From a virus: a stretch of DNA of 64,000 nucleotides. Both the position numbers and the translations under genes were made by a program. The notes under the pieces were generated by a model. That model was not told the origin of the DNA. It was given only the letters and a program-made list of their open reading frames with translations, and searched no databases. Location: positions 32,001 through 96,000 of IMG/VR virus record IMGVR_UViG_3300027659_000009, one strand, 5' to 3'. Numbering within the stretch: position 1 is the first letter of the stretch; the number at the start of each line of letters is the position of its first letter. This document shows, in pieces, positions 12,745 through 32,788 of this stretch.

Positions 12745-14166
12745 ATGAGCGACTCTCAAACAATTTTGGTAGAAAATAAAGGTAACGTAACATTAACTGA
12801 TAATGGTATGGTTACAAACAACACCACATTGAATAAATGTGTAGATTTGTTTTTCTCTATTGGATCGATGAGAGGAAAATCAAAAGATAAAGTAGTTAAA
12901 GTTTTCGAAGAAGCCTTTAATGAAAATCCTTTGGTTGCGTCTAAAGTCTTATTTTGGGCTAGAGACGTTAGAGGTGGGTCAGGTGAAAGAAAAGTCTTTA
13001 GAGACGTTATCTCATCCTTAATCACCAACTCACCACAAACTATTAGAAAGAACATTGCTTTAATACCAGAATTTGGTAGATGGGATGATGTTTTAGTTTT
13101 ATTTGGTACAGAGTTAGAGGACGATATGTATTCACTTATTAGAACGGCTTTAACAAACGGAGACGGTCTATGTGCCAAATGGATGCCGAGAAAAGGTATC
13201 ATCGCTAACGGACTTAGAAAATTGTTTAAGGTTACACCGAAACAATATCGAAAGATGTTAGTGGAACTAACTAATGTTGTGGAGACTAAGATGTGTGCTA
13301 GAGATTGGGAGTCAATTGATTATTCTAAACTTCCTTCTCTCGCATCATCTAGATATCAGAAGTCCTTTAAAAGAAACGATTTGACAAGGTATGAAGAATA
13401 TAAAACTGCCTTAGTCGATGGAACTGCAAAAGTTAATGCTGGTGCACTATACCCATATGACATCATAAAATCTATGAATATGGGTGGTGACGATGTTGTT
13501 AATGAGAAACAATGGGAATCATTACCTAATTGGATGGAAGGTTCTGAAGAAAGAATTTTACCAGTTGTTGATGTTTCAGGATCTATGGTTTGTGAGGTAG
13601 CGGGTAATCCTAACCTAACTTGTATGGATATTGCAATATCGTTAGGTATGTATATTTCAGAAAGAAATACGGGTAACTTTAAAGATGCGTTCATCACATT
13701 CTCTGAAAATCCTGAATTACAATACCTAAGAGGAAGCCTAAATGCAAGACTACACCAATTGAGGAGAGCAGAATGGGGTATGAGTACTAATTTAGAAAAA
13801 GTGTTCAGTCTAATTCTAACACAGGCAAAAAATAATAATATTACGGAGGAATTTATGCCGACTAAGATATTAATTTTGTCAGATATGCAATTCAATCAGG
13901 CGAACAGAAGGGATAGTTTGGGGGCACAATCTATGATTGAAGAAATGTATAGTGAGGCAGGGTATAAAGTACCTGATATCGTATACTGGAATTTAAATGC
14001 GAAAGGTGGGAATTTCCCAGTTGAGTTTGATAAAAATGGTACTGCATTAGTATCGGGATTCAGTCCGTCAATTCTTAAATCTATATTAGGTGGAAAGAAT
14101 ATGTCGCCAGAATCAATACTGATGGAAACTATTAATGATATACGATATAGTTTAGTTACTATATAA
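12745..14166 (+). CDS. DUF2828 / TROVE(Ro60)-like RNA-binding protein with C-terminal vWA domain
   Basis: ARDVRGGSGER, FGRWDD, AKWMPR; vWA MIDAS DVSGSM, LSDMQF, YWNL, SGFS. Confidence 0.8.
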   Translation: MSDSQTILVENKGNVTLTDNGMVTNNTTLNKCVDLFFSIGSMRGKSKDKVVKVFEEAFNENPLVASKVLFWARDVRGGSGERKVFRDVISSLITNSPQTIRKNIALIPEFGRWDDVLVLFGTELEDDMYSLIRTALTNGDGLCAKWMPRKGIIANGLRKLFKVTPKQYRKMLVELTNVVETKMCARDWESIDYSKLPSLASSRYQKSFKRNDLTRYEEYKTALVDGTAKVNAGALYPYDIIKSMNMGGDDVVNEKQWESLPNWMEGSEERILPVVDVSGSMVCEVAGNPNLTCMDIAISLGMYISERNTGNFKDAFITFSENPELQYLRGSLNARLHQLRRAEWGMSTNLEKVFSLILTQAKNNNITEEFMPTKILILSDMQFNQANRRDSLGAQSMIEEMYSEAGYKVPDIVYWNLNAKGGNFPVEFDKNGTALVSGFSPSILKSILGGKNMSPESILMETINDIRYSLVTI

Positions 14167-14179
14167 AACGTTCTTTGAA
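14167..14179 (+). promoter_or_regulatory. boxA-like element (GTTCTTTGAA)
   Basis: aaacgttctttgaa identical to the sequence at 28691 before the tRNAs; also found before the tmRNA. Confidence 0.55.
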
Positions 14180-14184
14180 GATAT

Positions 14185-14346
14185 TTGTGGTAGTAAACGA
14201 ATCATTGCAGCAAAATTTAAAACTATAAATTTAACTACAATAGATAGGGCTTTGATAACCCACATAACTACATGGGTGTAAACCGTGAAAGCGGAGGAAC
14301 CACTCAGGGTTATGAGAAAAAGTGTCAGACGATTCCGATACCACAA
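14185..14346 (+). ncRNA. putative structured ncRNA 1 (Y-RNA-like candidate)
   Basis: terminal helix ttgtggta/taccacaa plus gaatc/gattc; blocks shared with ncRNA 2. Confidence 0.65.
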
Positions 14347-14354
14347 TGTTATTA

Positions 14355-14675
14355 GGTGTAAAGGGTTGGGGGTTATCGAACTCCCTTTAAGTCCAATAAA
14401 CGAATGGTTTCTGCAACTTTAAAAACTACAAAAACAAGTTCAGAAGGGGTTTTACCACTTTACTTCGATAAAAGTATAAAGTGGACGACCATAGGTGAGT
14501 TAAAGTGGGTGTACCCCACACTCTAGGTCGTAAAACATACCTCTTGTTTATCTCATGTGAAAAAGATAGTTGGATTTGTCTCAACTAAAAAAACAGACAC
14601 CCAAACCTATATGGGTTAAAAATGTGGGGGTGATACTATATCACTTAAAAAAAATAGGATCACCATTCCGACACC
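14355..14675 (+). ncRNA. putative structured ncRNA 2 (Y-RNA-like candidate)
   Basis: ggtgt/acacc and gaatggt/accattc closing helices; many internal hairpins; raised GC. Confidence 0.65.
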
Positions 14676-14682
14676 GAAATTA

Positions 14683-14710
14683 AAGAGGGAAGAGAAATCT
14701 TCCCTTTTTT
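14683..14710 (+). terminator. intrinsic terminator
   Basis: agggaaga-gaaa-tcttccct plus T tract. Confidence 0.8.
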
Positions 14711-29611: not shown

Positions 29612-29718
29612 TACATTACACAAATAAAATAATAACTAATCCTACCTTGACAACAAAAAAATATTTTTTTGTTGACAATTAAAATAAATTTAGTTATAAT
29701 TGAATAAAAAATAAACTT

Positions 29719-30348
29719 ATGGAATTATTAAAATCGTTAGAGTGGAGATACGCCACCAAAAAAATGAATGGGGAGAAAATCCCACAGGATAAATTAGAAA
29801 GAATCTTAGACGCAACAAGATTGGCACCAAGTTCATACGGACTTACACCATATAATGTTATTGTGGTAGAGGATCAAAAATTAAAAGAAGAGTTACAAGG
29901 GGCATGTTACGGACAAACACAATTAAGTGAGTCATCCGCAGTACTTGTATTTGCAACGTGGGATGAGGTTACAGAACATTCTGTAGAGAACTACATTAAT
30001 GAGATTGCAAAACAAAGAGAAATCCCTGTAGAGTCATTAAATGGTTTACAAGACATGATGAATGGATCATTAACCAACATGTCACATGAACAAAAGATTT
30101 CTTGGGCTCAGAGACAAGCATACATCGGATTAGGGTTCGCATTAACGGCAGCAGCAATAGAAGAAGTAGACTCAACACCAATGGAAGGATTTGTTCCTGA
30201 ATCAGTGGATACTGTTTTAGGTCTACAAGAATTAGGATTAAAATCGGTAGTAGTTCTTCCATTAGGATATAGAGATACAGAGAATGATTATTTATCAACA
30301 CTAAAGAAAGTGAGATGGGATAATGATAAGTTCTTTATTAGAAAATAA
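29719..30348 (+). CDS. nitroreductase (NfsB-like NAD(P)H oxidoreductase)
   Basis: WRYATKK, RLAPSSYGL, DSTPMEGF, LGYR. Confidence 0.9.
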   Translation: MELLKSLEWRYATKKMNGEKIPQDKLERILDATRLAPSSYGLTPYNVIVVEDQKLKEELQGACYGQTQLSESSAVLVFATWDEVTEHSVENYINEIAKQREIPVESLNGLQDMMNGSLTNMSHEQKISWAQRQAYIGLGFALTAAAIEEVDSTPMEGFVPESVDTVLGLQELGLKSVVVLPLGYRDTENDYLSTLKKVRWDNDKFFIRK

Positions 30349-30354
30349 AAATTT

Positions 30355-30428
30355 AGTTAGTTAGATGGCGTGTTGGCATACGCACCCGATCATAAGGGAG
30401 ATAATGGGTTCGATTCCTGTGCTGACTA
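30355..30428 (+). tRNA. atypical tRNA-like RNA / pseudo-tRNA (CAT within an 8-nt loop)
   Basis: acceptor AGTTAGT/GCTGACT, T-arm ATGGG-TTCGATT-CCTGT; non-canonical D and anticodon arms. Confidence 0.55.
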
Positions 30429-30486
30429 CGCAAAAAACATTGAACTGAGTTTCCTTGCTGCAAAGTGGGTTTTACAAGTTCAACAT

Positions 30487-30640
30487 AGTCAGGTGGTGGA
30501 ATGGTAGACACATAGTGACACGCACGGCAGCCTTGAATAAGTGCATTTTGAAAAGGCAATGCGAATGATGAAGAACACTACCTCACGGTGCGTAGGTAAA
30601 ATTCAAAGTGTTCATACAGGTTCGATTCCTGTCCTGACTA
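30487..30640 (+). ncRNA. 154-nt tRNA-like RNA with expanded anticodon/variable region
   Basis: AGTCAGG/CCTGACT-A acceptor, Leu-type D-arm GTGGAATGGTAGACAC, T-arm ACAGG-TTCGATT-CCTGT, ~100 nt between D and T arms. Confidence 0.75.
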
Positions 30641-30652
30641 CAAACACATAAA

Positions 30653-30725
30653 CTTCGGTACCCGTACCGCTGACGATGGGCTAAGTAATATACAATTCCG
30701 TACTGCGGGGAGTAGAATGCCGAAG
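30653..30725 (+). ncRNA. putative GC-rich structured RNA
   Basis: closing helix cttcgg/ccgaag; internal cccgt/atggg and tccgt/gcggg hairpins. Confidence 0.45.
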
Positions 30726-30911: not shown

Positions 30912-30946
30912 TTTTAAACATAAGGTGATTTTTTATCACCTTTTTT

Positions 30947-30977
30947 TTTGTTATATGAAATATTTTACCTATATTTG
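30947..30977 (+). promoter_or_regulatory. Bacteroidota sigmaA-type promoter
   Basis: TTTG-N19-TATATTTG. Confidence 0.7.
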
Positions 30978-30993
30978 TCTTAAATAAATTCAT

Positions 30994-31728
30994 ATGCCAA
31001 AGATATTTGAAGTAGGTGGTTGTGTCAGAGATGAATTGATGGGTGTGGAAACAAATGATATTGATTTCACATTTGTCTTAGACAATTTGGATAGAACCGT
31101 AGAAGAAGGATTCCAAATAATGACTGATTGGTTATTACATAAGGAATTTACTATTTTCTTAAGTACACCTGATTGTTTTACTATTAGGGCAAAGTTTCCT
31201 AAAGATCACATTCATTCTGGTTTGGTTGCAGATTTTGTTCTCGCAAGAAAAGAGGTGGGGTATGTTGAAGGAACAAGAAAACCTATTTTGGAATTGGGTA
31301 AGTTGGAAGATGATTTGGTTCGTAGAGACTTTACGTTGAACGCATTGGCGAAAGATGAAAACGGTTCTATTATAGATTTGTTCGATGGTATTTGGGCATT
31401 GGAAAATAAACTATTGTTAACTCCATTGGACGCAAAGGTAACTATGTTAGATGATCCATTAAGGCTGATTAGGGCATTTAGATTTTCTATCACTAAAGGT
31501 TTTGAGATATCACCTACGATTTGGGAGACTTGTTTAATGGATAGTGTTGTAGATAAATTAGAGTTGGTAGTATCAAAGGAAAGAATCAGAGAAGAACTTT
31601 TAAAGATGTTAAAACACGATACGTTAAAGTCTTTGGAATTGTTTTCAAGAATAAAAATACTTAACCCTAAAATTTTGGATATTATGTTTGGTGGGGATAT
31701 GTGGTTAAAACCAACATTTGAAAAATAA
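30994..31728 (+). CDS. cca: tRNA nucleotidyltransferase (CCA-adding, class II)
   Basis: VGGCVRD..DIDF; DLVRRDFTLNALA; DDPLRLIRAFRF; SKERIREE. Confidence 0.88.
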   Translation: MPKIFEVGGCVRDELMGVETNDIDFTFVLDNLDRTVEEGFQIMTDWLLHKEFTIFLSTPDCFTIRAKFPKDHIHSGLVADFVLARKEVGYVEGTRKPILELGKLEDDLVRRDFTLNALAKDENGSIIDLFDGIWALENKLLLTPLDAKVTMLDDPLRLIRAFRFSITKGFEISPTIWETCLMDSVVDKLELVVSKERIREELLKMLKHDTLKSLELFSRIKILNPKILDIMFGGDMWLKPTFEK

Positions 31729-31732
31729 TTAT

Positions 31733-32788
31733 ATGAAAGAGATACTTAAAAAATATGAAGAGGATGGATTGTTGTTCAGACAATTCTATCAGACATTGGA
31801 TTTAGAGATTTGGAATTATTCTGAAAAGGTTCAATACGAAGGACTATGGGATGACATCACATTAATGTGTCGTGGATTAGTCACAAACTCTAATGGTGAT
31901 ATTGTGGCAAGACCATTCCGTAAATTCTTTAACATCGAAGAGGGTAGACATACACCTACAGAACAGTTTAATGTCTACGAAAAAATGGATGGTTCTTTGG
32001 GTATATTATTTTTCTACAATGACGTTTGGGTTATGGCAACTAGAGGTTCCTTCACTTCTGATCAGGCGGTTAAAGGATTTGAGATGTTGAAGAACTATGA
32101 CTATGAGAAACTACATAAAGATTATACATATCTGTTTGAGATAATATATGATGAGAATCGTATTGTGGTAAAATACTCATTCGAAGATTTAGTATTACTT
32201 GGGGTTATTGAAACCAAAACTGGTTATGAAGTTGATTTATGTGGTGTAGAAAACGATATCAGATTAAAAAATTTAATAACTAATATTGGTTTTAAGGTAG
32301 TAAAACAATATGATGGCATAAAAGACTATTCATTATTGAAGGGAATGATAGGGGATGATGAAGAAGGTTTCGTTGTTCAGTTCTCTAACGGTGATAGGAT
32401 GAAAGTTAAGGGTGAGGAGTACCTTCGTCTACATAAGATAATGACTAACGTATCTACCACTGCGATATGGGAAATGGTGAGTGAGGGTAAAGATGTGTTG
32501 GAGTTATTAAAAGATGTTCCAGATGAATTCTACGATAAAATTAAATTATATGTTAGTTCTTTAAACTATGGGTATTACCAATACTGGAATCAATTAGGTA
32601 AAACATATGATTACTTTAGGTTTGGTAAATATGGTGTCATAGAAGTGGAACCGACTAAGAAAGAGTTTGCGGAATTCATTAAAGATAATCATCCAGTTGC
32701 GAAGGCAATTATGTTTGCGATGTGGGATGGAAAAGACTATGATAAAATTATTTGGAAAGCACTCAAACCAGAATTTAAAAAGTTATGA
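31733..32788 (+). CDS. RNA ligase 1 (T4 Rnl1-like)
   Basis: CRG, RPFRKFFN, EKMDGSL (motif I), TYLFE, EGFVV, KVK. Confidence 0.9.
   Translation: MKEILKKYEEDGLLFRQFYQTLDLEIWNYSEKVQYEGLWDDITLMCRGLVTNSNGDIVARPFRKFFNIEEGRHTPTEQFNVYEKMDGSLGILFFYNDVWVMATRGSFTSDQAVKGFEMLKNYDYEKLHKDYTYLFEIIYDENRIVVKYSFEDLVLLGVIETKTGYEVDLCGVENDIRLKNLITNIGFKVVKQYDGIKDYSLLKGMIGDDEEGFVVQFSNGDRMKVKGEEYLRLHKIMTNVSTTAIWEMVSEGKDVLELLKDVPDEFYDKIKLYVSSLNYGYYQYWNQLGKTYDYFRFGKYGVIEVEPTKKEFAEFIKDNHPVAKAIMFAMWDGKDYDKIIWKALKPEFKKL

Follow-up and report, generated by a model that had tools for sequence, protein, structure and literature searches.

The question raised by this locus is what kind of genes lie at positions 30355-30725 of the stretch of viral DNA analyzed here (64,000 nucleotides, hereafter the window), where four structured units, (a) to (d), follow one another and two of them resemble tRNAs. 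All four were recovered where the first-pass annotation had placed them, and comparison with other phages identifies them as conserved RNA elements. That annotation had read the tRNA-like units as a family rather than as independently decayed tRNAs, and had offered three roles for them: decoys, splicing substrates, or carriers of cargo RNA.

Setting and layout of the RNA cluster

The window lies on a single virus contig of 166 kb with 30% GC. The contig is estimated to be 51% complete, and the phage genome is therefore probably larger than 300 kb. The Bacteroidota promoter pattern TTTG-N19-21-TAnnTTTG occurs at 25 sites of the genome, mostly just 5′ of start codons, compared with 2 to 8 sites in shuffled sequences, which indicates a Bacteroidota host. 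The virus is accordingly referred to here as a Bacteroidota jumbo phage. A tmRNA, encoded by a separate gene of the same phage (21548-21916), and three ordinary tRNAs were also found. The cluster and its neighbors are arranged as follows (window coordinates):

29672-29700, + strand, putative promoter 5′ of the nitroreductase gene, a perfect (12/12) sigma70-type motif
29719-30348, + strand, nitroreductase gene (PF00881, E = 1.7e-19), probably cotranscribed with the cluster
30359-30428, + strand, unit (a), a tRNA-like frame in which a 3-bp stem and an 8-nt loop holding CAU replace the anticodon arm
30440-30483, + strand, unit (b), a spacer hairpin (ttgaact/agttcaa) with a GCAA tetraloop
30487-30640, + strand, unit (c), a tRNA-Leu-like frame around a cargo RNA, with U-1 and A73, CCA not encoded
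30653-30725, + strand, unit (d), a separate conserved RNA motif with a covarying closing helix
30759-30911, + strand, 50-aa open reading frame without a Pfam match, the last gene 5′ of the terminator-like hairpin
30922-30950, + strand, hairpin and T run resembling an intrinsic terminator, between the RNA cluster and the CCA gene
30947-30977, + strand, Bacteroidota-type promoter motif TTTG-N19-TAnnTTTG, 5′ of the CCA and Rnl1 genes
30994-31728, + strand, CCA-adding-type nucleotidyltransferase gene (PF01743)
31733-32788, + strand, Rnl1-type RNA ligase gene (PF09511), a member of an ordinary RNA-repair cluster and outside the element

The cluster does lie just upstream of the CCA gene, as first described; between the two, however, stand a hairpin of the terminator type and a promoter motif that is separate from that of the cluster. 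Since the cluster is located between the promoter motif at 29672 and the hairpin at 30922, and the CCA and Rnl1 genes have a promoter motif of their own, the cluster most likely forms part of the nitroreductase transcript, with a predicted start at the 29672-29700 motif, and not of the repair operon. This motif has the form TTGACA-17-TATAAT, while many other genes of the phage use the Bacteroidota-type motif; the nitroreductase/RNA cluster may belong to a different temporal class from those genes.

The RNA-repair set of the phage (window 25426-26693 and 30994-34732) comprises two calcineurin-like phosphoesterases, HAD_SAK_2, the CCA-type enzyme, Rnl1, a 216-aa protein, and an AAA_33 kinase. 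The region 12745-14700 contains a DUF2828/DUF7788 gene and, 3′ of it, a boxA-like site and a GC-richer noncoding stretch of approximately 500 nt, for which Rfam returned no match. Stable-RNA loci follow the boxA-like GTTCTTT sites at window positions 14170, 28695, 28888, and 30330.

Neither default ARAGORN nor Rfam reported (a) to (d) in the window, and Rfam at relaxed thresholds, applied to the window and 15 related loci, yielded no family for the four units or for the cargo RNA of (c). The folding energies of (a), (b), and (c) are unremarkable (z = -1.2, -1.1, and -0.9, none significant; that of (d) is -2.8), so the case rests on comparison. Frame family and cargo are undescribed in the literature covered, to which most subscription papers did not belong, and have no Rfam entry; the cargo or (d) may already be among 10,006 published candidate RNAs (PMC10690425).

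As previously noticed, units (a) and (c) share a T-arm/acceptor motif; the window contains two copies of it, where 0.01 would be expected. Unit (a) is indeed tRNA-like with an 8-nt loop, but its start is most likely 30359 rather than 30355, as judged from the relatives L399 and L401 and from a relaxed ARAGORN call. Counted from 30359, it measures 70 nt to the discriminator and displays G14, U15:A48, and an A7.G66 mismatch that leaves its acceptor 6/7 paired. Its 5′ half is like L399 and its 3′ half like L401, so that it looks like a recombinant of the two relative types. The T stem of (a) is weak and only four relatives were found; we read it as a sister frame with a minimal middle, possibly in decay. 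In a close relative of the phage (L148), (c) is located directly 3′ of the nitroreductase gene and (a), (b), and (d) are missing. Among phages, these modules occur in shuffled arrangements.

The hairpin (b) had been delimited correctly at 30440-30483. Its GCAA tetraloop sits atop a variable stem, and among seven copies a tRNA or frame follows in 7/7 and precedes in 6/6 of those with upstream sequence. The position given for (d) was also right, with a core at 30653-30725, although its outer stem reaches approximately 30734. One search pattern detected (d) at at least 22 loci and a second at more, while a relaxed pattern disclosed no distant homologues. The motif lies between tRNA-Gly and the next tRNA in one phage group, directly 5′ of a frame in others, and directly before (c) itself in L196. 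Three pairs of the closing helix of (d) are compensated; its inner pairs, among them those of a possible loop-loop contact, are invariant and hence lack covariation support. Both (b) and (d) are conserved RNAs located between tRNAs. A hammerhead reading of (d) was rejected, as CUGANGA is not conserved and Rfam gave no match. A variant of (d) at L454:148-260, L458, and L467 has an extra hairpin in one loop, flanked by invariant bases, and at L438:4451-4861 a complete GOLLD RNA shares its tRNA region with a (d) homologue.

The cargo RNA of unit (c)

Unit (c) occupies 30487-30640 (154 nt), as originally proposed, and consists of an acceptor paired at 7/7 positions, a D arm, a T arm, and a 104-nt middle. 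The elements of this middle are as follows:

30516-30613, + strand, cargo RNA motif of approximately 98 nt within the 104-nt middle
30520-30525 with 30588-30593, + strand, covarying pseudoknot
30527-30562, + strand, helix P2
30541-30546, + strand, self-complementary loop GUGCAU with a UGCA core at the tip of P2, the predicted intermolecular kissing site
30566:30600, + strand, single covarying pair
30573-30578 with 30608-30613, + strand, helix P3
30579-30583 with 30594-30598, + strand, helix P4

Searches with the middle of (c) alone recovered 64 distinct sequences at 97 places. In an alignment of 57 sequences, the 26 proposed pairs are formed in 92.5% of cells, compared with 21-42% in slid controls, and double changes were found in 18 of them. 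Compensated pairs number three in the pseudoknot and six in P3, and the isolated pair switches between C-G (36 sequences) and U-A (20); the invariance of P4 and of a nearby TCAA was imposed by the search pattern. As represented by these 64 sequences, the 104-nt middle of (c) is an independent structured RNA motif. The pairings within (c) had been taken as mutually exclusive. This did not hold: ACGCAC/GTGCGT forms a pseudoknot that can coexist with GAACAC/GTGTTC, and covariation was seen in both. Of the 64 motif copies, only 8 allow the alternative pairing TAGTG/CACTA in full.

Comparison of (c) with 50,697 cultured-phage records by blastn gave just three chance matches (E = 0.5), and blastn of the cargo against plasmids found nothing real. 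The cargo pattern was absent from a sample of 401 genomes that represented the phylum to which a Chitinophagaceae bin belongs (the presumed host phylum), and the cargo model had no match in 5 bins; the cargo is thus unlikely to be a host housekeeping RNA. An antisense or guide role was set aside, no match longer than 12 nt being present elsewhere in the phage's own contig (approximately 51% complete). An HDV-like (theta) ribozyme was likewise rejected, since the C of CGAA is base-paired and covaries from G-C to A-U (pair 12-53) and Rfam gave no match. Bacterial Y RNA (YrlA, RF02553) had no match in the window.

The loop of P2 contains a central 4-nt palindrome in all 43 distinct versions (5000 shuffles: mean 15, maximum 28) and a 6-nt palindrome in 31 of the 43 (shuffles: mean 4.4, maximum 14). 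These palindromes vary, comprising 7 different 4-mers and 12 different 6-mers. The 6-nt palindrome of the window has G-U pairs at its ends, and the computed self-duplex energy of its loop is -8.5 kcal/mol, as compared with -0.6 when the palindrome is broken. For OLE and GOLLD, pairing between molecules has been argued from palindrome switching (10.1101/2024.12.08.627333). Since adjacent self-complementary bases are unable to pair within one chain, switching between palindromes suggests pairing between molecules, and we infer that the cargo forms a homodimer through a kissing loop. An origin of the palindromes as DNA sites or template-switch products is less likely, because their flanks are often not complementary and the genome underuses most such words.

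The surroundings of the cargo were compared across phages. Among 66 distinct cargo flanks, 18 lie in a tRNA frame, 24 have a TGAC-led hairpin behind them, and 24 are of other types. A closing helix of at least six Watson-Crick pairs was observed in 23/24 of these other copies, versus 1/24 of the copies with the TGAC hairpin. The three contexts nearly exclude each other. Framed copies display five different acceptor sequences and several T stems, all of them 7/7 paired and near-constant in spacing, and in several of the plain-helix copies a side hairpin stands in the D-arm position. The TGAC hairpin sits between free-standing cargo and, mostly, a tRNA-Leu gene or frame; in the slot behind it, frames and tRNA-Leu genes alternate. 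On the simplest reading, defined ends are a requirement of the cargo, and phages meet it in three ways, of which the tRNA frame is one. The TGAC-led hairpin, with a GAAAGA-type loop and a variable stem, was seen at L001:255-300, L080:2385-2425, L114:1612-1650, and approximately 35 other loci.

Apart from one copy on a long branch, the framed cargo copies form one supported tree group, as would be expected if the cargo had been captured into a frame once; the tree is short, with few columns and no true root, and the direction of change (capture into the frame) is not readable from it. In Porphyromonas phage005 and four related phages, free-standing cargo directly follows the major capsid gene; it was also found upstream of a capsid gene in L216, two genes after a terminase in L158, and elsewhere too. 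A 39-aa hypothetical protein annotated in phage005 (L429:4038-4157; PP754928.1) overlaps the cargo RNA motif and is probably spurious.

Splicing by the adjacent Rnl1 had been proposed, and (c) was therefore examined as an intron-containing tRNA that a nuclease and this ligase would process. ARAGORN with its intron option does call a tRNA-Val(cac) with a 67-nt intron, and Rnl1, CCA, and end-healing genes are nearby. However, the tRNA called is implausible: its intron lies inside the anticodon stem, a C.A mismatch and an unpaired extra arm result, and the call cuts through a motif of which conserved copies exist in capsid operons without a tRNA. Removal of the cargo leaves approximately 7 nt between the D and T arms, from which no anticodon arm can be rebuilt, and no intronless gene was found in the fetched loci. 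The insert matched no group I or group II intron family in Rfam at E values up to 1. Besides the hairpin and promoter motif that intervene before the CCA and Rnl1 genes, linkage to these genes is not conserved: of 168 loci, none has Rnl1 at a distance of 3 kb or less from a family unit, and 5 have a CCA gene at such a distance (1/39 with full flanks). We regard splicing as extremely improbable. CCA enzyme and Rnl1 are common repair genes of jumbo phages (PMC7824862). The phage CCA enzyme, while not a conserved neighbor, may act on CCA-less frames as on all CCA-less RNAs of the phage.

The family of tRNA-Leu-like frames

The frame of (c) is composed of three elements:

30487-30493 with 30633-30639, + strand, acceptor stem, 7/7 paired
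30496-30511, + strand, D arm
30616-30632, + strand, T arm

The features of a tRNA elbow, together with the discriminator, are present (A14, A15:U48, G18G19, C56, and A73). A 5-bp anticodon stem with a 7-nt loop is absent from (c), and its counterpart in (a) has 3 bp and 8 nt. A role as a decoy for anticodon nucleases is inapplicable to (c), which is without an anticodon loop.

A search of relatives for the frame motif and a comparison of the inserts uncovered a family with exchangeable middles. Matches to the exact 23-nt frame pattern are present in at least 120 viral stretches, one of which has as many as 7; among bacterial genome collections, the pattern was found only on metagenome-bin contigs, many of them Bacteroidota. 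Parsing of the fetched loci yielded 235 distinct frame units (including a few misparsed spans; 215 after filtering), which are related in sequence, so that counts overstate independent events. Acceptor, D, and T arms are retained and the anticodon region is swapped out: a plausible anticodon arm is present in only 8 units, and middles range from 10 to 229 nt. A14 is kept in 222/235 units and U-1 in 194/235. At 15:48, 186 of the 235 have A:U and 12 have G:C (154 A:U among canonical tRNAs). After filtering, A73 was found in 193/215 frames versus 226/324 canonical tRNAs, GG in the D loop in 211/215, and an encoded CCA in 4/215. The D arm, the 15:48 pair, and A73 of the frames match tRNA-Leu genes of the same phages or loci. 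Constancy of the acceptor sequence is partly an effect of the search pattern, but among odd frames in loci retrieved with different patterns, 36/58 still have the common acceptor.

We also considered whether these units are pseudogenes, that is, decayed tRNAs into which sequence has been inserted at random. The acceptor mismatch, weak T stem, and few relatives of (a) are in keeping with decay, as are the absence of (a), (b), and (d) from L148 and the weak folding z-scores. Against it, compensatory changes occur in the acceptor, the T stem, and the 15:48 pair, with some at 19:56, and the cargo covaries. In addition, a promoter motif lies 5′ of frames as frequently as of real tRNAs (17/214 versus 20/329). 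Decay is very unlikely for the cluster at large and not plausible for (c); for (a) alone, it is a minor yet real possibility. The original view of a family rather than independently decayed tRNAs is borne out by the 235 distinct units and their covarying structure.

The suggestion that the frame is a carrier for cargo RNA was also borne out for (c), the cargo of which has its own conserved fold and exists with and without a frame. Middles of the family are mostly unrelated to one another (136/150 clusters are singletons), and no other middle was seen free-standing in the fetched loci; the carrier role is therefore shown for the (c) cargo only. A second cargo family, with middles of approximately 95-105 nt, was observed at L013:587-742, L114:836-992, L150:4115-4271, L221:2025-2181, L230:5212-5368, L241, L253, and L257. 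Its frames have an acceptor that starts with UGU and a G or C discriminator, and thus not all frames are of the Leu type. A few family frames, at L018:2846-2920, L051, and L079, may be working tRNAs, since their anticodon arm looks normal for Lys (UUU).

The frames could alternatively serve as punctuation, that is, as processing sites that release the flanking (b), (d), and mRNAs, with a middle that matters little. The tRNA or frame behind every copy of (b), the placement of (d) between tRNA-Gly and the next tRNA or 5′ of a frame in other phages, and the extreme diversity of frame middles are all consistent with such a role. However, strong structural selection acts on the middle of (c), and in L189 and L256 the framed cargo has a Bacteroidota promoter motif and a boxA-like site directly upstream, which fits a product and not a cut mark. 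On balance, punctuation as the main function is unlikely.

A further possibility is that the frame itself is the working part, either as an aminoacylated, anticodonless mimic of tRNA-Leu that is charged by the host LeuRS and binds EF-Tu or as an elbow/acceptor decoy that anticodon nucleases cannot cut, with the cargo as a passenger. The frequencies of A73, D-loop GG, and A15:U48 given above favor this, as does the unusual constancy of the acceptor. Escherichia coli LeuRS needs A73, A15-U48, G18G19, and A20a, and charges variants without anticodon and variable arms (PMC9976931). As read from its sequence, (c) has the full published E. coli LeuRS identity set, which is incomplete in (a) and in some other cargo frames. 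However, descent from tRNA-Leu alone predicts the same bases, and variants with G15:C48, U15:A48 (unit a), or G73/U73 exist. The second cargo family has G73 or C73, and some (c)-type frames have A19.A56. Moreover, the LeuRS of Aquifex depends on a variable arm in the correct orientation (PMC2377443), and the cargo is conserved both with and without the frame. As the primary explanation, a working frame is thus rather doubtful, although it is compatible with a scaffold function and the two can hold together.

A proposed natural tRNA scaffold

The reading we prefer, with a probability of roughly 0.6, is that (c) is a composite gene, in which the top half of a tRNA-Leu would act as a natural tRNA scaffold around a structured RNA of approximately 98 nt that probably dimerizes through a kissing loop. 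Comparison of sequences across phages shows that the frame is kept as a structure, that the cargo has a conserved predicted fold of its own, and that the same cargo occurs frameless, with ends apparently supplied by a plain helix or by neighboring tRNAs.

Under the scaffold model, the nitroreductase transcript would be cut at A1 of (c) by host RNase P, as expected from known tRNA biology. The 3′ end would then be trimmed and CCA added by a host or phage enzyme, giving a stable RNA of approximately 157 nt, and the same processing would also free (a), (b), and (d). The frame would provide the cargo with processed, protected ends. Judging from palindrome switching, the cargo would homodimerize through its kissing loop, and higher oligomers could form if the pseudoknot were intermolecular. 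As to what the cargo does, we would guess first at an abundant complex made of phage RNA only, which would bind or soak up a host or phage protein during infection. A broader and much more speculative version is a modular "tRNA cassette" of Bacteroidota jumbo phages, in which a tRNA-Leu-derived, possibly leucylated frame would capture and stabilize many RNAs and the cargo of (c), as a small RNA that would self-assemble through its kissing loop and an intermolecular pseudoknot, would have a head-assembly or antidefense role. The presence of the cargo in head and packaging modules of several smaller phages is a hint of such a role.

The closest natural architecture is T4 rnaC, the closest working model is the engineered tRNA scaffold, and the closest systems for self-assembly are OLE, ROOL, and GOLLD. 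T4 rnaC (species 1 RNA, 139 nt) and rnaD (species 2, 119 nt) are stable, function-unassigned RNAs of the T4 tRNA cluster (PMC3014915, PMC9697503). In rnaC, as in (c), an acceptor-like stem, which in rnaC is imperfect, and a T arm enclose a long middle unlike that of a tRNA, and the gene lies in a phage tRNA region. However, rnaC has no canonical D arm, whereas the frame of (c) belongs to a multicopy family with exchangeable middles and its cargo also occurs on its own; blastn detected no sequence homology between (c) and rnaC or rnaD. Engineered scaffolds of acceptor, D, and T arms with an insert at the anticodon are recognized by E. coli factors and protect the inserted RNA (PMC3753655). In contrast to these, (c) is natural, both its anticodon and variable arms are replaced, and its cargo is a multibranch, pseudoknotted RNA and not an extension of the anticodon stem.

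Two of the multimeric RNAs, ROOL and GOLLD, come from phages and are often located near tRNA islands. Symmetric kissing loops in OLE and GOLLD were seen by palindrome switching, and the cargo loop likewise covaries between palindromes. Compared with OLE, ROOL, GOLLD, and ARRPOF, the cargo is far smaller (approximately 98 nt) and is carried in a tRNA frame, and its dimer is predicted from sequence; the covariance models of these four RNAs gave no Rfam match for the cargo. The dimerization initiation site (DIS) of HIV-1 also presents an unpaired palindrome like the cargo loop, and phi29 pRNA offers a further multimeric comparison. A natural tRNA-like acceptor/T domain enclosing a pseudoknotted RNA is likewise found in tmRNA; unlike tmRNA, (c) has no RF00023 match, contains a full D stem, and shows no tag frame. 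The frames share their D arm, 15:48 pair, and A73 with the class II tRNA-Leu genes of the same loci but lack the anticodon arm, and their acceptor starts with A1-U72. Finally, allo-tRNAs have 8/4 or 9/3 acceptor/T folds (PMC7609411), versus 7/5 in the frames.

What is new here is the middle of (c) as an independent motif, with a covarying, predicted pseudoknot and a palindrome-switching loop. Porphyromonas phage005 releases particles in culture of strain ATCC 49417 (PMC10367356), and its free-standing cargo copy makes expression testable in a cultured system. The cargo is a candidate for a natural dimer-forming RNA that is, at only approximately 98 nt, small enough for direct structure work, and frame and cargo together provide a testable reading of the long-unexplained RNAs of the T4 rnaC/rnaD type. 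If the model is true, phages themselves would have evolved the tRNA-scaffold trick, and a large class of RNA genes in phages would be overlooked or wrongly labeled by tRNA finders.
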